Positions 498 to 11,532 of a stretch of 11,532 bases of DNA are shown here, one piece after another. Within the stretch, counting starts at the first letter, position 1. Every line of letters begins with the position of its first letter. Location of the stretch: NCBI GenBank assembly GCA_964534375.1, contig CAZHPN010000184.1, positions 1 to 11,532 of the forward strand, read 5' to 3'. The DNA is from an uncultured bacterium (GTDB lineage: Bacteria; Lernaellota; Lernaellaia; Lernaellales; Lernaellaceae). Position numbers and translations under genes: made by a program. A model generated the notes under the pieces. That model saw nothing but the letters and a program-made list of their open reading frames with translations, did not search any database and had not been told where the DNA came from.

Positions 498-1511
498 CTA
501 GTCTTTGTACGGGCTCGGCACGCCGGCAGGCTGCACCTTGTAGCGCCGGTGCACCCAGAGCCACAATTCCGGATTCTCGCGAATGACTTTGGCGACGGCG
601 TTGGCCTGGTTCTGGGTGTTGATCCGCAATTCCTCTTCGGGGTCTTCCGGGTGCGGCTCCCAGGGCACTTCCTCGGTCATGACCAGTTTGCAGCGGCCGG
701 GGCCGGTGCGGAACGCATAGCCGACGAGCACGGCGGCGCCGGTCTCGCGCGCGACCCAGGCGTTGGATTTCACGGTCGAGGCCTGGCGGCCGAGCCAGTC
801 GACGAAGATGCCCTGGTCGAGCTTCATGTTCTGATCGACGGCCATGATGATGCCTTCGCCGCGCTTGAAGCCGTCCAAAATCCGCTTCATCGAGTTCTTG
901 TGCAGGATCGTGCCGAGGTTGGCGTCCAGGCGCGCGTTGCGCACCAACCGCTCGATGTCGGCGTTCGATTGGCGCTTGGAGACGATCGAGATCGGGTAAC
1001 CGCCGATGCTGGCGCGGCAGCCGGCGAAGTCCCAGACGCCGATGTGGCCGCCAATGAGGATCACGCCTTTGCCGCGATTGTAGGTTTCGGTGAGCAGATG
1101 CTCGTTTTCGATGGGGAAATTGGCCCAGTATTCCTCGTCCATCTGCGGCGTGCGCACGTAGTCGAGCGCGTGCCGGCCGAGGTTGATCATGCAGGCGCGG
1201 TAGATGGCCTGTTTTTCCGCGGCGGTTTTGGAATCGCCGAACGCGATATCGAGGTTGGTGAGGGCCACGCTGCGGCGAATTCGCAGCCGGGCCAGCAGCC
1301 GGCCGACGACCCCGCCAAACCAGTCGGCGGTTTTCCACGACATCGCGCGCAGCGGCGGCAACAAAAGGCGCAGGAGCAACTGGAACGCCCACGAGCCCTT
1401 TTCGAGTTCGGGCTCGGTGTGGGCGACGACATAGTCGTGCGCTTCCTGGCGGGTCCAGGGGAACGGTTTCGGCCGCGGCGTGCTTTTCGACTCGACGTTA
1501 TTGTCAGGCAT
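498..1511 (-). CDS. lpxL: Lipid A biosynthesis late acyltransferase (LpxL/HtrB/MsbB family)
   Basis: 337 aa. Contains NLDIAFG, GKGVILIGGHIGVWD (catalytic HxxxxD/E), AVDQ, the FVDWLGRQAST segment and C-terminal IRENPELWLWVHRRYK. The exact paralogue and acyl specificity cannot be determined from sequence alone. Confidence 0.88.
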   Translation of the reverse strand: MPDNNVESKSTPRPKPFPWTRQEAHDYVVAHTEPELEKGSWAFQLLLRLLLPPLRAMSWKTADWFGGVVGRLLARLRIRRSVALTNLDIAFGDSKTAAEKQAIYRACMINLGRHALDYVRTPQMDEEYWANFPIENEHLLTETYNRGKGVILIGGHIGVWDFAGCRASIGGYPISIVSKRQSNADIERLVRNARLDANLGTILHKNSMKRILDGFKRGEGIIMAVDQNMKLDQGIFVDWLGRQASTVKSNAWVARETGAAVLVGYAFRTGPGRCKLVMTEEVPWEPHPEDPEEELRINTQNQANAVAKVIRENPELWLWVHRRYKVQPAGVPSPYKD

Positions 1512-2602: not shown

Positions 2603-5284
2603 ATGAACGAACCGACGAAGCGACTGGTGTTGATCGACGGCAGCGGCTACATCTTCCGCGCGTTTTTCGCGGTCCGCGCGCTGAGCACTTCGACGGGCCT
2701 CCCGACCAACGCCGTTTTCGGCTTCGCCAGCATGCTCGACAAAACGCTGCGCGACCTCGCCCCCGACGCGGTCGCTGTTTGCTTCGACACGCCGGTGAAA
2801 ACGTTCCGTCACGTGCGCTTCCCCGACTACAAAGCGAATCGCCCCGAGCCGCCGGAGGCGCTGGTCCCGCAATTTCCGCTCATCGTGGAATTGGTGCAGT
2901 TGCGCGGGCTGCCGATGTTGCGCATCGAGGGCTTCGAGGCCGACGACCTGATCGGGGCGCTGGCGCGGCAGGGCGAGGCGGCGGGCTGGGAGGTCGAGAT
3001 CGTCACGGGCGACAAAGACCTGATGCAGCTCGTCAGCGACCGCGTGCGCATTTTCGACGGGCTGAAGGAAACGTGGATCGGCCCCGACGAGGTGAAAGCG
3101 CGGTTCGGCGTCGAGCCGGCGCGGGTGATCGACGTGCTGGGCCTCGCGGGCGACACGTCCGACAACGTGCCCGGGGTGCCGGGCGTCGGCGAGAAGACCG
3201 CGAGCAAGCTGGTGGTCGAGTACGGCAGCCTGGAAGCCGCGCTGGCCGCCGCCGACCAGATCAAGGGCAAGCTCGGCGAACGGCTGCGCGAAAACGCGGA
3301 GCTCGCGCGGCTCTCGCGCGAACTGGTGACGATCGACGTGAACGCGCCCGTCGGCAAGACCATGGCCGAACTGACGCCGGCGCCGCCGGACATCGAGGGC
3401 CTGCGCACGTTCTACACGAAGCTGGAATTCCGCGGGCTGCTGGCCGCCCTGCCGTCGCCGAAATCGACGATCGACCGCGACAAATATCGCGCGATCCTCG
3501 ACGAAGACGAGCTGCGGGCCGTGATCGCGAAACTGGAAAAATGCGAGGGTTTCGCCTTCGACACCGAGACCACCTCCACCTCGGCGATGTCGGCGCACCT
3601 GGTCGGCATGAGTTTCTGTTGCGGCGCGCAGGAGGCGTGGTATCTGCCGCTCGCGCACTCGTATCTGGGCGCGCCCAAGCAAATCCCCGTCCTGCGGGCG
3701 CTGGCGCTGCTGGCGCCGCTGCTGACCGATCCGCGCCGGCCCAAATGGGGACAAAACGCCAAATATGACATGTTGGTGCTCGAGAACGCCGGGGTCAAAG
3801 TCGCGGGGCTAGTCGGCGACACGATGATCGCCGACTACCTGCTCGGCGCGGGCCTCGGCGGGCATTCGCTGGACGCGATGGCCCAACGGCACCTGGGCCA
3901 CACGAACATCAAATACTCCGAGGCGACCGGAACCGGCAAGAACAAGGTCACCTTCGACCAGGTCGAGATCGGCGCCGCGACCCGCTACGCCGCCGAGGAC
4001 GCGCACGTCACGTGGCTGCTGAAGGAAAAGCTCGAGCCGGCGCTGCGGCGGGACGAAGGCGGCTGGCGCATCTACCGCGAGGTGGAGATTCCGCTCGTCG
4101 AAACCCTGGCGGCGATGGAGCGGGCCGGCGTGGCGATCGACGCGCCGTATTTCGCCGCCCTGTCGCAGGAGATGGACCACCGCGTCAACCTGCTGGTGAA
4201 CGAGATCCACCAGCTCGCCGGGGAGCCGTTCAACCTCAACAGCCCGGCGCAGATCGCCCGCGTGCTGTTCGAGAAGCTGCAAATCAAGGCCGGCCGGAAG
4301 ACCAAGACCGGCTTTTCGACCGACGCGGCAGTGCTCGAGAAGCTGGCCGAGGAAGGCCACGACGTGCCGCGGCTGATGTTGGAATATCGCGCGCTGGCCA
4401 AACTCAAAGGCACGTACGTCGATGCGCTGCCGCTGCTGGTGAATCCGCGCACGGGCCGCATTCATACGAGCTTCAACCAGACCGTCGCCGCGACCGGCCG
4501 CCTCTCGTCGAGCGACCCGAACCTGCAGAATATTCCCATTCGCAGCGACGACGGCCGGCGCATCCGCCAGGGCTTCGTGCCCGCCGCCGGCAAGCTGCTG
4601 CTCGCCGCCGACTACAGCCAGATCGAGTTGCGGCTCGCCGCGCACATGGCCGGCGACCAGATCATGATGGACGCCTTCCGCGCCGGCCTCGATGTGCACA
4701 CGCGCACCGCCGCCGAACTGATGAACGTCTTCCCCAACATGGTGACGCCGGAGATGCGCGCGGCGGCGAAGACGGTCAACTTCGGCGTGCTCTACGGCAT
4801 GGGCGCGGCGCGGCTCGGCCGCGACCTGGGCATCGGCACGAAGAAGGCGCAGGAGTTCATCGACAACTATTTCGCGCGCTTTCCCAAACTCCGCGCGTGG
4901 CTCGACCGCACGCTCGCCGAGGCGCGCGAACGCGGCGAGGTCCGCACCATTCTCGGCCGGCGCCGGCCGCTGCCCGATCTGACCAGCGCCGACCCGGCGG
5001 CGCGCTCGGCGGCCGAACGCGCGGCGATCAACACGCCGGTGCAGGGCAGCGCGGCGGACCTGATCAAGCTGGCGATGCTGTCGTTGCACCGCCGCATCGA
5101 AAAGGAAAAACTGCCGCTGACGATGATCCTGCAGGTGCACGACGAACTGGTGTTCGAGGTCGAGCCGGGCGCGGCGGAAGAGTGTCTGGCCATCGTCAAA
5201 AAAGAGATGGAAGACGTGATGGAACTGGCGGTGCCGATCGTCGTCGAGGCGAAGACCGGCGCCAACTGGCGGGAGGCGCATTGA
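2603..5284 (+). CDS. polA: DNA polymerase I (5'-3' exonuclease, 3'-5' exonuclease and polymerase domains)
   Basis: 893 aa. 5' nuclease motifs LIDGSGYIFRAF, EADD, TGDKD, GDTSDNVPGV. Exo I FDTET, Exo II QNAKYD, Exo III YAAED. Polymerase motifs A (ADYSQIELR), B (RAAAKTVNFGVLYG) and C (LQVHDEL). Confidence 0.99.
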   Translation: MNEPTKRLVLIDGSGYIFRAFFAVRALSTSTGLPTNAVFGFASMLDKTLRDLAPDAVAVCFDTPVKTFRHVRFPDYKANRPEPPEALVPQFPLIVELVQLRGLPMLRIEGFEADDLIGALARQGEAAGWEVEIVTGDKDLMQLVSDRVRIFDGLKETWIGPDEVKARFGVEPARVIDVLGLAGDTSDNVPGVPGVGEKTASKLVVEYGSLEAALAAADQIKGKLGERLRENAELARLSRELVTIDVNAPVGKTMAELTPAPPDIEGLRTFYTKLEFRGLLAALPSPKSTIDRDKYRAILDEDELRAVIAKLEKCEGFAFDTETTSTSAMSAHLVGMSFCCGAQEAWYLPLAHSYLGAPKQIPVLRALALLAPLLTDPRRPKWGQNAKYDMLVLENAGVKVAGLVGDTMIADYLLGAGLGGHSLDAMAQRHLGHTNIKYSEATGTGKNKVTFDQVEIGAATRYAAEDAHVTWLLKEKLEPALRRDEGGWRIYREVEIPLVETLAAMERAGVAIDAPYFAALSQEMDHRVNLLVNEIHQLAGEPFNLNSPAQIARVLFEKLQIKAGRKTKTGFSTDAAVLEKLAEEGHDVPRLMLEYRALAKLKGTYVDALPLLVNPRTGRIHTSFNQTVAATGRLSSSDPNLQNIPIRSDDGRRIRQGFVPAAGKLLLAADYSQIELRLAAHMAGDQIMMDAFRAGLDVHTRTAAELMNVFPNMVTPEMRAAAKTVNFGVLYGMGAARLGRDLGIGTKKAQEFIDNYFARFPKLRAWLDRTLAEARERGEVRTILGRRRPLPDLTSADPAARSAAERAAINTPVQGSAADLIKLAMLSLHRRIEKEKLPLTMILQVHDELVFEVEPGAAEECLAIVKKEMEDVMELAVPIVVEAKTGANWREAH

Positions 5285-6460: not shown

Positions 6461-7045
6461 TCACTTCACGCCGACGGTCAGCAGGATCCGCATCAGTCGC
6501 ATGCCGGCGACGCGGTGATGCGAGAGGCGCAGCCCGGCGTCGGCGAACAATTGCTCGCGTTCGGCCGCCGTGCGGGCGCGCTCGCCGAGCAAACGGCGGA
6601 GCGGCGACGGTTTGATATCCGCCAGAATGAAGCGGCCGCCCGGGCGCAGGACGCGGACGGCTTCGCGCACGCCGGCGGCCTGGTCGGCCCAATGGTGAAA
6701 GGAAACGCTGGTCAGTACGGCGTCCGCCGAGCTGTCGGGCAACGGCAGTTTCTCTCCGGGCGCCAGGTGAAATTCCGCGCTCGGCGTCAGGCGGCGGGCG
6801 ACTTCGACCATGCCGGCCGCGGGGTCGACGCCGATCAGCCGCGCCTCCGGCCACCGCGCGTGAACGGCCCGCAATAATCGACCCGTGCCGCAGCCGACGT
6901 CGACGACTGTGCTCGGGGGCGCGGCCGCCAATTCGTCGATCACCGTGACGTGGACCGGGTCGAACATCAAGCGTTGCAACAAGGAGTCATCGTAGGTGCG
7001 CGACCAACGATCGAAACGTGCAACATCGCGATTGGCATGGTTCAT
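6461..7045 (-). CDS. Class I SAM-dependent methyltransferase, 194 aa
   Basis: Start moved to ATG 7045 (MNHANRDVARFDRWSRTYD). Motif I VVDVGCGTG, GVDPAAGMV, EKLPLPDSSADAV, SFHHW, RVLRPGGRFILAD. The upstream extension to 7393 overlaps an IS remnant. Confidence 0.92.
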   Translation of the reverse strand: MNHANRDVARFDRWSRTYDDSLLQRLMFDPVHVTVIDELAAAPPSTVVDVGCGTGRLLRAVHARWPEARLIGVDPAAGMVEVARRLTPSAEFHLAPGEKLPLPDSSADAVLTSVSFHHWADQAAGVREAVRVLRPGGRFILADIKPSPLRRLLGERARTAAEREQLFADAGLRLSHHRVAGMRLMRILLTVGVK

Positions 7046-7053
7046 GGACGGCG

Positions 7054-7082
7054 AGTGTAGTGCGGCAGCCGGCGCGGCGCAA
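7054..7082 (-). promoter_or_regulatory. Predicted sigma70 promoter of the methyltransferase gene
   Basis: Minus strand TTGCGC (7082-7077) - 17 bp - TACACT (7059-7054), with only 8 nt before ATG 7045. Confidence 0.6.
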
Positions 7083-7101
7083 GATGAAGCGGGGCCGGCC
7101 C

Positions 7102-7505
7102 CAGGGCAAACGCCTCTAAGCGCCCAACACCGCGTCGGGGGGCGCTTGTCCGGCGGCGATTTTTTCCAAGGGCATCGCGGCGAAAACGCGGCTATGCGTG
7201 TCGTGCGACGGAATGCCGTTCGGGAGTTCCAGAACCGTGCCGAGCCACGGGCGCTGCGCCAGGCCAAGGGTCTCCATGTCCGTGAATCCCGCGCCCCCGC
7301 AGTCCAGGCAGCAGACGCCGATGACCAGGATGTCGATCGGCTGGCGCAAGCGGCCGAGATCGGGGAAATGGAACGGGGCAAGGTCTGTCCCATGAAGGAT
7401 CGCGAGCACTTCCCTCACCAAACCTGGCAGGCGGGGCGCAATGTGGTCCGCTATGTCCACCGAGACTCGGTCCGACCAGACCTAACTGCAGATGCGTTTA
7501 CCCTG
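7102..7505 (-). mobile_element. Internally deleted (non-autonomous) ISAs1-family insertion sequence, 404 bp
   Basis: Terminal inverted repeats CAGGGCAAACGCCTCT (7102-7117) and AGATGCGTTTACCCTG (7490-7505; reverse complement CAGGGTAAACGCATCT), 14/16 identical. They enclose an ISAs1 transposase N-terminal fragment. No clear target-site duplication. Confidence 0.85.
7116..7460 (-). pseudogene. ISAs1-family (H-repeat-associated) transposase remnant: N-terminal domain only, DDE core missing
   Basis: IDILVIGVCCLDCGGAGFTDMETLGLAQRPWLGTVLELPNGIPSHDTHSRVF matches the ISAs1 N-terminal signature (DIL.I......G...L.L.nGIPSHDT..RVF). 114 aa, far shorter than a full transposase. Confidence 0.85.
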
Positions 7506-7712
7506 CGCCCGCTGCGCGAACGCCGTCTCGCGGGCCGCTTCCCTCCGGCCGGCCGCTTTTCGCGCGGTTTCTTTTCGACTTTTCCGTGGCGAAAAACGTT
7601 GGAAAAAAAATAGCGCCGTTATTACATTGATTGCTGTGCACAAAAACGAGGCCCGCCGCCGGCGTGGGCGGCCCGGGCGACGAAGCGATGAATGTCGATG
7701 GGGGGCGCAATT

Positions 7713-8684
7713 ATGGAACGTAGCCGCCGGCGAATCGCCGCGGTGGACCCCGACGGCGAACGCGGCCGGCGGTTGCTCGAGTTGATCGAGGCCGAAGACT
7801 GCGCCGGGGTGCATCTGTCCGACTGGGATCGAGCTCTGCAGGAAATTTACAACGACCCGCCGGACCTCATAATTTTGGCGGCGGAGGGCCGGCGCTGGAA
7901 GGCGACGCTGCGGAACCTGAAAACCGATCCGGTGTTCGGGCACCTGCCTGTGCTGGCGTTGATGGAGCCGGCGACCTTGGTGACGGGCGCGCCGTTCGCG
8001 ACCCTGCCGGTCGACGATTTCTGCTTCCTGCCGCTCGACGACCACGAACTGCGCCTGCGCATTCGGCTGGCGATCGAAAAGGCCGCGCGGCGGCTCGACG
8101 CCAATCCACTGTCGCGCCTGCCCGGGGTTCACGCGGCGATCGCCGCCGTGCAACAGCGCATCGACGAGAAGAGGCCCTTCGCCTTCGCCCTCGTCGACAT
8201 CGACACGCTGCAGGCGTTCAACGACCGGTACGGCTTCGCCCGCGGCGACGAGGTCATTCGCATGACCGCGCGCGTGCTGGCCAACACCGTCCGCAGTTTT
8301 CCGGACGCGCGGGGCTTCGTCGCGCACCTCGGCGGCGACGACTTCGCGCTGGCGGTCGACCCGTCGGCGCTGGAATCCCTCAGCCGCGAGGCGCTCGTGC
8401 AATTCGACATGCTCGCGCCGACCTTTTATGACGATGCCGACCGTCAACGGGGCGGCGTCGAAATCCTCGACCGGCAGGGCAACCGGCGCGTTTTCCCGCT
8501 CGTGACGCTATCGATTGCCGCGGTCTGTTCGAGCAATCACGACTTCACGCACTACGGCCAGTTCGCGGCGGTGGCGACCGACGTGAAGAAAAAGGTCAAG
8601 GCGATGGCGGGCTCGAACTGCCTGCTCGACCGCCGCTGCACGAAGGTCGACGAACCGACCGACGAAACGCCGCGGGTGAATTGA
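7713..8684 (+). CDS. Receiver-like domain + GGDEF-family (GGDDF) signalling protein, 323 aa
   Basis: ATG 7713 preceded by GGGGGG (alternative starts 7692/7698). N-terminal REC fold (IAAVD, PPDLIIL, HLPVLAL, VDDFCFLPLDDHELRLRI). Then DANPLSRLPG, DIDTLQAFNDRYGFARGD, HLGGDDF (GGDDF at 8331-8345) and TLSIA. Confidence 0.88.
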   Translation: MERSRRRIAAVDPDGERGRRLLELIEAEDCAGVHLSDWDRALQEIYNDPPDLIILAAEGRRWKATLRNLKTDPVFGHLPVLALMEPATLVTGAPFATLPVDDFCFLPLDDHELRLRIRLAIEKAARRLDANPLSRLPGVHAAIAAVQQRIDEKRPFAFALVDIDTLQAFNDRYGFARGDEVIRMTARVLANTVRSFPDARGFVAHLGGDDFALAVDPSALESLSREALVQFDMLAPTFYDDADRQRGGVEILDRQGNRRVFPLVTLSIAAVCSSNHDFTHYGQFAAVATDVKKKVKAMAGSNCLLDRRCTKVDEPTDETPRVN

Positions 8685-8712
8685 TCCGCATCCGGCCGAG
8701 AACTCGGCGTCG

Positions 8713-8740
8713 CCTTTGGCCGCATCCAAAGGTTCTTTTT
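8713..8740 (+). terminator. Intrinsic terminator after the GGDEF gene
   Basis: CCTTTGG-ccgcat-CCAAAGG (8713-8732) followed directly by TTCTTTTT. A second small palindrome, GCCGAG-aa-CTCGGC, lies at 8695-8708. Confidence 0.65.
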
Positions 8741-8770
8741 GCCCCAGATGAACGCAGATGGCCGCAGATA
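8741..8770. repeat. 10-nt x3 tandem repeat (nnCGCAGATG)
   Basis: GCCCCAGATG AACGCAGATG GCCGCAGATA in the convergent intergenic gap. Confidence 0.7.
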
Positions 8771-8814
8771 CGGCACAGGCCATGCGGTCCGGGCACGGCC
8801 GGTTTCGCAAGCGC

Positions 8815-9540
8815 TCAGTTTGTCGCGGTGATGCCGCCGCCGAAGCGCACGCCGAGGGAGACGAAGCCGCCGAACATCTGGGTTCGCGGGCCCTTGCCGT
8901 AGGCGTCGATGTCGCCGGCGTCGCCGCCGGCGGTGATGCTCCACGCTTCGGTGGTCAGCGGCGCGTAGCCGCCGACGGTCAACGACCACACCATGCCGAT
9001 CAGGCCGTTTTCTTTGTGATAAAGAATGGGGGTCCATTCGGCGGTCAGGCCGAGGCGGCCGAGCCAGGCGTTGCGATTGAAGGTCAAGTTGTCGTCGCCG
9101 TTGGGGATGCCGATGCCCTGGTAGCGGCCGGTCACGCCGTCGAGTACGAAATTGAGCGACGACAAACCGACGCCGAGTTCCGGGCGCAGCCGCCAGCACG
9201 GCGTCGCGATGGCGTCGTAACCGACGGACAACGTGTAATAGCCGCCCGCGAAACTGACGTCGGATTGCTTGCCGCCCTCGTACAGCAGAAACGTGTGGCC
9301 TTCCAGGATGAGGTGAAAATTCTGTTGCAGGACCAGTTGCAGATTCCAACCGATCGCCGGCGCGACCGGCGAAAAGCGGTGGATTCCCGCCGGGCGGAGA
9401 AAGCTGTTCATGCCGCTCATGTCGATGATCAGCGGTTGGATGTCCAGTCCGCCGTAGATGCCCCAAAGCAGACTGTCGCCGGCCCCGGCCGCGCCGGTCA
9501 GCAGGACGATCAACAAGCCGGCAAGCAAGATCTTGCGCAT
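8815..9540 (-). CDS. Exported hypothetical protein, probable outer-membrane beta-barrel, 241 aa
   Basis: Start moved to ATG 9540 (GGAGGG upstream). Signal peptide MRKILLAGLLIVLLTGAAGA. Many alternating Gly/aromatic amphipathic strands (YYTLSVGY, RLGLTAEW, WSLTVGGY). C-terminal strand FVSLGVRF. Confidence 0.7.
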   Translation of the reverse strand: MRKILLAGLLIVLLTGAAGAGDSLLWGIYGGLDIQPLIIDMSGMNSFLRPAGIHRFSPVAPAIGWNLQLVLQQNFHLILEGHTFLLYEGGKQSDVSFAGGYYTLSVGYDAIATPCWRLRPELGVGLSSLNFVLDGVTGRYQGIGIPNGDDNLTFNRNAWLGRLGLTAEWTPILYHKENGLIGMVWSLTVGGYAPLTTEAWSITAGGDAGDIDAYGKGPRTQMFGGFVSLGVRFGGGITATN

Positions 9541-9566
9541 CAATTTCCCTCCGGTGAAGCCGCGCC

Positions 9567-9595
9567 AGGATAGCACATCTCCGCCGGCTTGTCGG
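9567..9595 (-). promoter_or_regulatory. Possible extended -10 sigma70 promoter for the beta-barrel gene
   Basis: Minus strand TGcTATCCT (9575-9567), with CCGACA (9595-9590) 17 bp upstream of the hexamer. Confidence 0.45.
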
Positions 9596-9618
9596 CAACG
9601 GAGCGGGGCCGCGCCGCG

Positions 9619-9650
9619 ATAAAGAAAAGGCCGGCCTCGCGCGGCCGGCC
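9619..9650 (-). terminator. Intrinsic terminator after the OmpA-like gene
   Basis: 8-bp stem GGCCGGCC (9629-9636 / 9643-9650) with a 6-nt loop, followed on the minus strand by TTTTCTTTAT. Confidence 0.8.
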
Positions 9651-9672
9651 GTCGGTATTGTCGCAGTCGCGG

Positions 9673-10473
9673 TTACTCGGTCGTCCCGACTTCGGAGGTC
9701 AACTTCGCCGGTCGTTCGAAGACCACGGTCAGGTCCACCCGGCGCCGTTCGGGGTCTTTCTTGCCGGTGGAAGCGACGGGCGCCGCGGAGACCGCGGCAG
9801 CCGCGGGCGGCGGCGCGTTCTTGTCTTTCGGCGTCGCGCTGGCGACAAAACCGGCGGGGTGGCCGTCAAGGGCCTGCATGAAGACATGCGCGGCCGGGAA
9901 GCCGTTGGTCGTCAGGTAGAAACGGGTCACGAGGGCGCGGCGTTGCGCCAGGGCCATGTTCTCGTCTTCCGTGCCCGGCGGATCGGTGTAGGCGGTGAGC
10001 ACGACGTAGAACTTGTGGTTGGCGTACATGGCGTTGAGATACGCGAGGGCCTTATCCAGCTTCTCGCGTTCCGCGGGTTTGATCGAATTGGAAGAGAAAT
10101 CGAAATAAATCGAGGTCTTGAAGTTCTTCAACTCGTCCGGCGGCCCGCCGGCCTGCTCGGTCACGGCGGCAGCCACGGGCGTCGAATGCGCCATCGCGCA
10201 TTTCTTGGCGAAATCGGCGAGCGCGACCGTTTGGTCGGCCGCTTTCGCCGCCTGGTCGGTTTGGTCGACCGCGAGCAGTTGCGTCTGCTGCAGTTTCATT
10301 TCGGCGCTGGCGAATTCGTCCGGGCAGAGTTTCATCGCTCCGGCGGCCTTGGCGTCGTCAACCGCCTTCTTCGCGGCGTCGATCTTCGGGGTCAGAACGT
10401 CGGTTTTCGCGGCGCAGCCGGCGAGCAACGCCACCGCGCACAGAACGCACAGAATGCCAGCGATCCGGTTCAT
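9673..10473 (-). CDS. OmpA/Pal-like peptidoglycan-binding lipoprotein with N-terminal DUF4398-like helical domain
   Basis: 266 aa, GGGAGG RBS. Lipobox LLAG-C. AKKAVDDAKAAGAMKLCPDEFASAEMKL is DUF4398-like. OmpA-C motifs IYFDFSS, AYTDPPGTEDENMALAQRRA and RRVDL. Confidence 0.85.
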   Translation of the reverse strand: MNRIAGILCVLCAVALLAGCAAKTDVLTPKIDAAKKAVDDAKAAGAMKLCPDEFASAEMKLQQTQLLAVDQTDQAAKAADQTVALADFAKKCAMAHSTPVAAAVTEQAGGPPDELKNFKTSIYFDFSSNSIKPAEREKLDKALAYLNAMYANHKFYVVLTAYTDPPGTEDENMALAQRRALVTRFYLTTNGFPAAHVFMQALDGHPAGFVASATPKDKNAPPPAAAAVSAAPVASTGKKDPERRRVDLTVVFERPAKLTSEVGTTE

Positions 10474-10540
10474 GATTTCCCTCCCGGACGAACGGTCCCG
10501 TCCGTCGACTCAAAGGGCAGCAATGCAGCGAACCTTCCTT

Positions 10541-10569
10541 TTTATAGCGTACACGCCAGCCGCCCGCAA
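10541..10569 (-). promoter_or_regulatory. Predicted sigma70 promoter for the OmpA-like gene
   Basis: Minus strand TTGCGG (10569-10564) - 17 bp - TATAAA (10546-10541). Confidence 0.6.
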
Positions 10570-10575
10570 GCCGAA

Positions 10576-11403
10576 TTAATGAAGATTTTTCAGCTTTTTC
10601 CGCGCGATGTCGGCTTCCTTGCTGCGCGGAAACTGCTGGATGACCTTCTCGTAGAAAAGTTTCGCGTCCGCCATATCGCCTTTCTGGTAGAAGGCGATGG
10701 CCGTATTCAACAGCGCCTCGGAGAAGTGCGTCGTTTGCGGATATTGGTGCATCAGCGTGTCGAACGCCAGAATGGAATCGTCCCAGCTCTCCTGTTTAAA
10801 CATGCTGGACGCGACGTAGTACTGGGCGTCGGCGCACTTCGGGCTCTTCTTATATTGCGTGAGGAATTGCCGGAACTGCGTCTTGGCCGATTCCAAGTTG
10901 CCCTGGTTGTAGAAGGCGACGCCTTGTTTGAACAGGTCGTCTTCAGTCAGCTTGTCCGCGCCCGCCGGCGGGATCGGAGCGGCGCCCGCGGCGCCGGTGA
11001 AGTCGCCCAGATTGCCGCGATCCACGTTGGTTACTTTGGCCCTCTTCTCCAGGGTCGCCAGGCGGACGTCGATCGCCTCGAACTGGCGCGCCAACTGCCG
11101 CCGCAGCATCGTAATCTGCTGCGGCGTCAACTGCTCGTGGCCAATGGCGTCGACCTTGCCCTGCAGAATTTGCAGGTCGTTCTGCAACTGGTTGAACCCG
11201 AGCACGGCGTCGCCGGCGGCCTGCGTGCTGGCGTCGAAGCGGGTTTTCAGGTCCGCGTTTTGCTTCTCCATGTCGTCGAGCCGCTTTTCCAGCGTGCCGA
11301 TCTGCACCTGCATCTCGGCGCCCTCGCTGGTCTTGACACAGCCGGCCAGCGCGAGCGCGAGCCCGATCGACAACCACAAGCCTGCAATAAGACGCATAGG
11401 CAT
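10576..11403 (-). CDS. cpoB: Tol-Pal-associated cell division coordinator CpoB/YbgF-like lipoprotein
   Basis: 275 aa, AAGGAG RBS. Lipobox LALAG-C, coiled-coil middle, three C-terminal TPRs (FRQFLTQYKKSPKCADAQYY...; YEKVIQQFPRSKEADIARKKL). Confidence 0.82.
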   Translation of the reverse strand: MPMRLIAGLWLSIGLALALAGCVKTSEGAEMQVQIGTLEKRLDDMEKQNADLKTRFDASTQAAGDAVLGFNQLQNDLQILQGKVDAIGHEQLTPQQITMLRRQLARQFEAIDVRLATLEKRAKVTNVDRGNLGDFTGAAGAAPIPPAGADKLTEDDLFKQGVAFYNQGNLESAKTQFRQFLTQYKKSPKCADAQYYVASSMFKQESWDDSILAFDTLMHQYPQTTHFSEALLNTAIAFYQKGDMADAKLFYEKVIQQFPRSKEADIARKKLKNLH

Positions 11404-11433
11404 GAACCGTCACTCCTTAAGCTTTACGCTCCG

Positions 11434-11462
11434 ACAATAACAACACGGAGGCGACTTGACAA
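11434..11462 (-). promoter_or_regulatory. Predicted sigma70 promoter for cpoB
   Basis: Minus strand TTGTCA (11462-11457) - 17 bp - TATTGT (11439-11434), with an extended -10 TG. Confidence 0.7.
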
Positions 11463-11481
11463 GAAACCATCGGGCCGGCGC

Positions 11482-11532
11482 CAGGGCGAACGCATCTAAA
11501 TTCCGAGCAACTTTTTCAGGTAGTCCGGTTTC
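11482..11532 (-). mobile_element. Right end of a second ISAs1-family IS, continuing beyond the window
   Basis: CAGGGCGAACGCATCTAA (11482-11499) is 16/18 identical to 7102-7119. The minus-strand frame ending at the repeat resembles an ISAs1 transposase C-terminus. Confidence 0.75.
11496..11531 (-). CDS. C-terminal tip of a probable ISAs1-family transposase (partial)
   Basis: Reads ...KPDYLKKLLGI* (TAG at 11498-11496), resembling the dYL.kvL terminus of ISAs1 transposases. The stop has the same offset from the IS end as in the 7102 element. Only 11 codons are visible. Confidence 0.65.
   Translation of the reverse strand, partial: KPDYLKKLLGI

Follow-up and report, generated by a model that had tools for sequence, protein, structure and literature searches.

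We analysed an 11,532-bp window, the whole of contig CAZHPN010000184.1, which is one of 381 contigs in the 64% GC assembly (GCA_964534375.1) of an uncultured bacterium of the family Lernaellaceae. Two ends of insertion sequences (ISs) of the ISAs1 family lie in this window, each 19 nt upstream of a predicted sigma-70-type promoter. ISAs1-family elements have terminal inverted repeats starting with CAGGG, a length of ~1.2-1.5 kb, one open reading frame (ORF) and a target duplication of 8-10 bp. The end motif CAGGG[CT][AG]AACGC occurred three times in the window, at 7102(+), 7505(-) and 11482(+). By chance, 0.47 matches were expected, and three were reached in 6 of 200 shuffles. An initial annotation of the same DNA had placed the motifs at 7102 and 11482 correctly and had missed the inverted copy at 7505. 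Judged by the sequences, a single ISAs1-family IS has inserted at both sites. The same spacing recurs beside other copies, and very probably such elements home to promoters at a fixed distance.

The inverted motifs at 7102 and 7505 bound a 404-bp element (7102-7505, minus strand) resembling a MITE (miniature inverted-repeat transposable element). Its C-type end, on the 3′ side of the transposase, is at 7102, and its T-type (5′) end at 7505. Inside lies a remnant transposase ORF of 114 amino acids (aa; 7116-7460, minus strand), with a Pfam match to PF13808, DDE_Tnp_1_assoc (48.3 bits, cut-off 32.3). The remnant also matched positions 1-58 of model NF033564 with 41.1 bits, short of the 70-bit cut-off since it is no more than a fragment. 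Its N-terminal domain is fused directly to the last C-terminal residues (..DAVLGA*), and the terminal repeat contains the stop codon. The element is therefore an internally deleted copy. No matching 10-bp duplication was found in its flanks (GGGCCGGCCC at 7092-7101 and CGCCCGCTGC at 7506-7515), so that it is old, rearranged, or has had one flank exchanged.

The end at 11482 (11482-11532, minus strand) is the C-type end of a full-length copy that runs off the contig. Translated, it reads ..KPDYLKKLLGI*, and the stop occupies 11498-11496; elsewhere the family C-terminus reads ..YLLRVLxI*. This 50-nt end stands at the start or end of 8 contigs, and the T-type end at 7 more, while the IS body of a full copy was not found in the assembly contigs of this genome. 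Six pairs of contig ends are joined by exactly matching target duplications of 10 bp, which directly abut CAGGG in 6/6 cases. Each pair combines a T-type end (CAGGGTA, on the 5′ side of the transposase) with a C-type end (CAGGGCG, on its 3′ side), and the two ends differ at positions 6, 7 and from 19 onward. At 11482, the 10 bp adjoining the tip, GGGCCGGCGC (11472-11481), occupy the duplication position, and no partner end for this decamer was found in the assembly. Three full-copy ends of this genome (G000) had no duplication partner: C57:31884, C368:2115 and the window's 11482. Related full copies measure 1239-1334 bp, carry a single transposase gene and the ends CAGGGYRAACGCATCTAA, and are flanked by a 10-bp target duplication.

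The end repeats start with CAGGG in the window copies, elsewhere in this genome and in the relative G015, which holds complete 1334-bp copies with the same ends. The G015 transposase carries PF13808 and PF01609 and scored 405.2 bits (cut-off 70) with NF033564, the model named 'ISAs1 family transposase'. In one full copy of this relative (L003 1561-1711), in-frame stops stand just 5′ of the TTG start, in the stretch that codes for the first 15-25 residues in relatives, and the protein may be N-terminally damaged. Copies of 1239-1241 bp from metagenomes encode 372-aa proteins, and three of them carry exact 10-bp duplications. Both Pfam domains were present in all of the 120 best listed homologues of the metagenome transposase, some of which are named 'predicted transposase YbfD/YdcC'. 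A structure predicted from a 39-sequence alignment had a mean pLDDT (predicted local distance difference test) of 90.7. The best solved match in a fold search was Tn5 transposase (E 9e-9, template modelling (TM) score 0.55-0.60); the IS256-type ISCth4 reached only E 1e-3. Pfam assigned DDE_Tnp_1 (with DDE_Tnp_1_assoc) and no Mutator-type domain. The predicted fold is thus Tn5/IS4-like, not Mutator-like.

Next to the tip at 7102, a predicted -35-like hexamer TTGCGC (7077-7082, minus strand) follows after 19 nt, and a predicted -10-like hexamer TACACT (7054-7059, minus strand) after 17 nt more. The gene behind them encodes a 194-aa S-adenosylmethionine-dependent methyltransferase (6461-7045, minus strand; Methyltransf_11, E 3.7e-24). 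Its mRNA would be leaderless or nearly so, since the predicted -10 ends 8 nt before the ATG at 7045. Beside the tip at 11482, the predicted hexamers are TTGTCA (11457-11462, minus strand), again at 19 nt, and TATTGT (11434-11439, minus strand), 17 nt further on and with TG just upstream. The gene here encodes a CpoB/YbgF-like tetratricopeptide repeat lipoprotein (10576-11403, minus strand; TPR_6 and YfiO matches). Its ATG lies 30 nt after the predicted -10, and AAGGAG stands 8 nt before the ATG. In a consensus promoter scan, the promoter at 11462 was one of two matches in 4.7 kb (9/12, with TG before the -10); that at 7082 scored 8/12, below the scan threshold of 9/12, and hence was not listed. 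Both genes read away from their element end. The hexamers and spacings are those that the initial annotation had given.

The two window sites also resemble each other next to the tip. The decamers 7092-7101 and 11472-11481 are identical in 9/10 bases (GGGCCGGCSC, with the palindrome GGCCGGCC within). This likeness could be due to chance in 64% GC DNA, or to a weak target taste. The shared flank GGGCCGGCnC had been listed as a common feature of the sites; it is real at the two window sites, but absent next to the tip at the other 8 C-type ends of the genome.

Across this genome, the -10 motif TAnnnT was found at offsets 41-43 (in nucleotides from the IS tip) in 7/10 C-type ends, although its genome-wide frequency per position is only 0.0021 (binomial P 4e-14). 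TTG stood at offsets 18-20 in 4/10. Genes behind the ends were called by GC content at third codon positions (GC3) and Pfam, as ORF lists are ambiguous at 64% GC. A gene with Pfam support reads away from the C-type end in 10/10 cases, in agreement with the earlier proposal that the promoter is left intact. The genes are those for a GH35 (glycoside hydrolase family 35) protein, ribosomal protein S21, a deoxynucleoside kinase, a radical SAM protein, a metallophosphoesterase, an ACT-domain protein, a creatininase, a family 2 glycosyltransferase (GT2), the methyltransferase and the CpoB-like protein. Their candidate starts lie 29-89 nt from the tip, with rpsU perhaps at ~170 nt.

We then pooled ends from this genome, its relatives, public genomes and metagenomes, which gave 222 unique ends in 221 unrelated flank clusters. 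The collection is a sample tied to one end motif and includes at least 124 public-genome loci, with one genome per species, from many phyla. Flanks were scored for a composite -35/-10 match (at least 8/12, with at least 3 in each hexamer) and for a strict one (TTG, 16-18 nt, TAnnnT). This hexamer scoring is crude and suits sigma-70-type promoters only. The spacing, proposed at first from two cases, was seen again in this genome, its relatives, the public loci and an independent metagenome set, with the IS end 18-19 nt upstream of a -35/-10 pair.

A first set comprised 168 unique ends from public genomes, relatives and this genome. On the outward strand, offset 19 had nine strict matches, offset 18 two and offset 10 three; the remaining 57 offsets together had 11. 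The opposite strand had nine strict matches over 80 offsets, with a maximum of two at any one. TAnnnT alone peaked at offset 42 (13 vs ~3.5). For replication, metagenome contigs were searched with a longer C-type end pattern. The 63 matches yielded 45 new ends after exclusion of six with short flanks, nine repeating earlier flanks and three duplicates. In this independent set, the composite match occurred 11 times at offsets 18-20 vs 28 times over the other 87 offsets, and the strict form five times vs five elsewhere.

Among all 222 ends, TTG was present at offset 19 in 25, compared with a mean of 4.4 at other offsets. The composite match at offsets 18-20 was found in 42 vs 7.9 expected (P 1.5e-17), and in 37 vs 7.5 expected when this genome was left out (P 1.4e-14). 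Beside other copies, then, TTG at a fixed offset with TAnnnT about 17 bp further on is enriched, the pattern that the initial annotation had suggested looking for. The peak holds in GC-rich (20/89) as well as AT-rich flanks (22/133). When TTG stood at offsets 18-20, 20/42 cases (48%) had TAnnnT 16-18 nt further on, compared with 16/267 (6%) for TTG at other offsets of the same flanks (Fisher P 8e-11). At positions 4-6 of the -35 hexamer, 23, 15 and 18 of the 42 cases at the peak carried A, C and A, respectively, which is the usual -35 degeneracy. At one locus (L033), a tRNA-Arg gene begins 16 nt after the end of the predicted -10. This tRNA gene and the short distances from C-type ends to gene starts in this genome indirectly suggest that the predicted sites may be used as promoters.

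Some further features of the ends and their flanks were recorded. A weaker second mode lies one helical turn closer to the tip: the pooled ends had 12 composite matches at offsets 9-10 vs 5.3 expected (P 0.008). Examples in G000 are TTGACA-18-TATAGT at C57:31884 (L225) and TTGACT-17-TAGAAC at C368:2115 (L224), and a further one is at C338:51 (L222). The first base outside the tip was G in 70/168 ends and T in only 15/168 (0.23 bits), which points to a mild base bias where the cut is made or to an end that is one base longer. At the metagenome loci L163, L179 and L182, ends of the same IS type stand 5-15 nt apart, as in nested or adjacent insertions. In mostly cyanobacterial ends (L035, L038, L043, L044, L100, L152), TTGACA reads inward ~24-27 nt inside the IS end. 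The transposase C-terminus of these ends is ~200 nt further in, and the hexamer may belong to an internal or antisense promoter.

The initial annotation had also proposed a fixed orientation. This held for the present genome, where it is the 3′ side of the transposase (C-type end) that is turned to the promoter, 7/10 vs 0/8 by the -10 test; among the eight T-type ends, none had a -10 at the predicted place and one had TTG. It did not hold for the relatives, in which the promoter lies beside either end. Both promoter-side ends of G015 are 5′ ends, and those of G010 are two 5′ ends and one 3′ end. Ten metagenome elements had both ends available: the promoter was at the 5′ end in four, at the 3′ end in one and on both sides in one (L200). 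All three metagenome elements with intact duplications had it beside the 5′ end. Fixed orientation is local to this genome and not general. We also considered C at position 6 as a general mark of the promoter-side end; this is true of the present genome and fails in G010, where the promoter is beside a T-type end (L016/L020). The G015 ends are identical over 20 nt. That asymmetry of the repeats might set the orientation fits with the unequal ends here and the near-identical ends there.

A mechanism can be proposed from these data. The ISAs1 transposase would select its target relative to a sigma-70-type promoter and place its 10-bp staggered cut so that the duplication and nine further bases (19 nt, sometimes 18) lie between the IS tip and the -35. 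If that hexamer is taken to occupy -35 to -30, the duplication would span about -54 to -45, which would be the upstream edge of the polymerase footprint; cut positions near -54 and -45 would follow from textbook promoter geometry. The promoter and downstream gene would stay intact. The spacing would be set at target capture, by docking of the transpososome on promoter-bound RNA polymerase holoenzyme. As proposed for TnGBS, the docking surface could be sigma region 4 or the alpha C-terminal domain. Guidance by promoter-bound polymerase, which the initial annotation had raised as well, is, in our view, the somewhat more probable route to the observed spacing.

The anchor of this geometry was sought in the 20 strict hits. 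Their -35 was at offset 19 in 16, and their -10 at offset 42 in 13. The -10 as anchor, rather than the -35, was not supported: no -10 peak was seen in ends without TTG, and the -35 offset was the steadier one, although numbers are small. The anchor is therefore the -35 element. Its reader could be the transposase, or else sigma region 4, on which the transposase would be docked.

Direct read-out by the transposase is the strongest alternative, though an unlikely one overall. Here the enzyme, for example with its N-terminal helical domain, would recognise a sequence like TTGAC that lies a set distance away from its active sites. Insertions beside such hexamers inside genes would be lost by selection, and mostly true -35 boxes would remain, which would create the link to the -10. 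The need for TTG and the steady -35 offset are in line with this idea, as is the fact that 4/5 hits with a spacer other than 17 nt keep the -35 at 19; some ends, moreover, have TTGAC and no clear -10. However, only TTG is well conserved, positions 4-6 vary as in an ordinary -35, and three bases are too few for homing. The gap between 48% and 6% in -10 occurrence is also larger than intergenic survival should give. We favour the polymerase reading because three conserved bases alone cannot direct an element to sites half of which carry a -10 at the right spacing.

The other two explanations fared much worse. If insertion were random and copies upstream of promoters merely survived as harmless, the general enrichment of surviving IS copies in intergenic DNA would be accounted for. 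Such selection cannot, however, yield a peak at 19 that is one base wide between flat flanking offsets, stands on one strand only and repeats in an independent set, and it is very improbable. Least probable of all is that the IS really extends beyond the motif and brings along the -35/-10 pair as its own outward-facing promoter, as the 9/10 bases shared beside the window tips and the common CAAGA-N7-GGGCCGGCnC might suggest, because the 10-bp duplications are flush with CAGGG in all six pairs, the flanks of the 222 ends are unrelated, and the other 8 C-type ends of the genome are without GGGCCGGC.

Several points weigh against promoter homing guided by polymerase. The signal was present in only 42/222 ends, about a fifth, and on at least one side of ~6/10 elements with both ends. 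Many insertions therefore lie elsewhere, or beside promoters invisible to this scoring. In ends without TTG at offsets 18-20, the -10 signal was 16 vs 10.4 expected (P 0.06); with the -10 signal gone in this way, the transposase could be reading the -35 sequence itself. Five ends (L016, L019, L053, L131, L158) had TTGAC at offset 19 without a TAnnnT -10. The Poisson tests treat offsets as exchangeable, and the public-genome ends are a sample of at least 124 loci. The window promoters are predicted ones, and the contigs of two metatranscriptome runs cover none of 6931-7700 or 10781-11532.

The two window sites were also compared with possible empty sites. No contig of two DNA runs spans either element, so that these runs revealed no empty site. 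The relative G001, which gave the only useful match, was rejected for this comparison, as it has another gene order upstream of cpoB, with an OmpA-like gene and a terminator. In the window, cpoB is upstream of a pal-like gene, an order that is reversed in G001. Other genes in the window encode a lipid A acyltransferase (501-1511, minus strand), DNA polymerase I (2603-5281, plus strand), a GGDEF-domain protein (7692-8684, plus strand) and an OmpA/Pal-like protein (9673-10473, minus strand).

To our knowledge, insertion upstream of promoters has been known only for the Mutator-like elements TnGBS, ISLre2 and ISKra4, and how these find promoters has been a question since 2009. Homing in a family that is unrelated to these and very widespread argues for docking on the initiation complex as a general solution. 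More tentatively, and with slightly less than even confidence, we suggest that ISAs1 transposases with a Tn5-like fold, unrelated to the Mutator-like homers, are physically guided by the sigma-70 holoenzyme across many phyla. If so, polymerase-tethered transposition would have arisen convergently in an enzyme that is small and folds well, the orientation would be set by how the two terminal repeats differ, and every ISAs1 copy or derived MITE would mark a working promoter to the base. Uncultured bacteria would thereby carry a natural promoter map. The 372-aa transposase, with its confident model, is suited to in vitro study as a second system. Homing accounts for the pile-up of these ISs and their MITEs in front of genes without breaking them. 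Regulatory effects are predicted, with upstream activator sites displaced by 1.3 kb. Each copy also flags a -35/-10 pair in phyla without known promoters.

The ISAs1 family itself, with ISAs1, IS1358, the E. coli H-repeat (YbfD/YdcC) and model NF033564, shares with the elements described here the transposase, a single ORF, a length of 1.2-1.3 kb, CAGGG ends and a 10-bp duplication. A published promoter or target rule for ISAs1 was not found in the full-text literature searched, supplements aside. The available text of a large survey notes for this family only biases in neighbouring-gene orientation and phylum (PMC9208149). No target rule is given in the available text of papers on Paracoccus elements and on the cyanobacterial MITE Nezha.

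The closest parallel in behaviour is with the TnGBS, ISLre2 and ISKra4 group, also termed p-MULT 3 and 4. According to the text of PMC3942029, which supplementary tables aside makes no mention of ISAs1, these elements land 15-17 bp upstream of the -35 box of sigma-A promoters and are proposed to contact the initiation complex. The same text describes a fixed orientation for Mutator-like elements whose inverted repeats differ, and both orientations for those with nearly identical repeats. As far as that text goes, the likeness to ISAs1 includes DDE elements at a fixed short distance upstream of a -35 (sigma-A/sigma-70) that leave the promoter intact, and unequal ends with one orientation (this genome) as opposed to near-identical ends with either orientation (G015). 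The spacing differs, at 18-19 nt here, so that the behaviour is the same without membership in the group. Their hosts are mainly Firmicutes, whereas the PVC (Planctomycetes-Verrucomicrobia-Chlamydiae) group, Cyanobacteria, Bacteroidota, Acidobacteriota and Legionella were among the matches listed here. Their transposases are Mutator-like and IS256-related; the present one is an unrelated DDE_Tnp_1 + DDE_Tnp_1_assoc protein. Because its predicted fold is Tn5-like and not Mutator-like, promoter homing by ISAs1 appears to be convergent with that of TnGBS, ISLre2 and ISKra4. A more distant likeness is seen in Ty3, whose integrase is guided by TFIIIB/TFIIIC (as cited in the text of PMC3942029). Ty3 also integrates at a fixed position beside a transcription initiation complex, but it is a eukaryotic retroelement and depends on RNA polymerase III factors.

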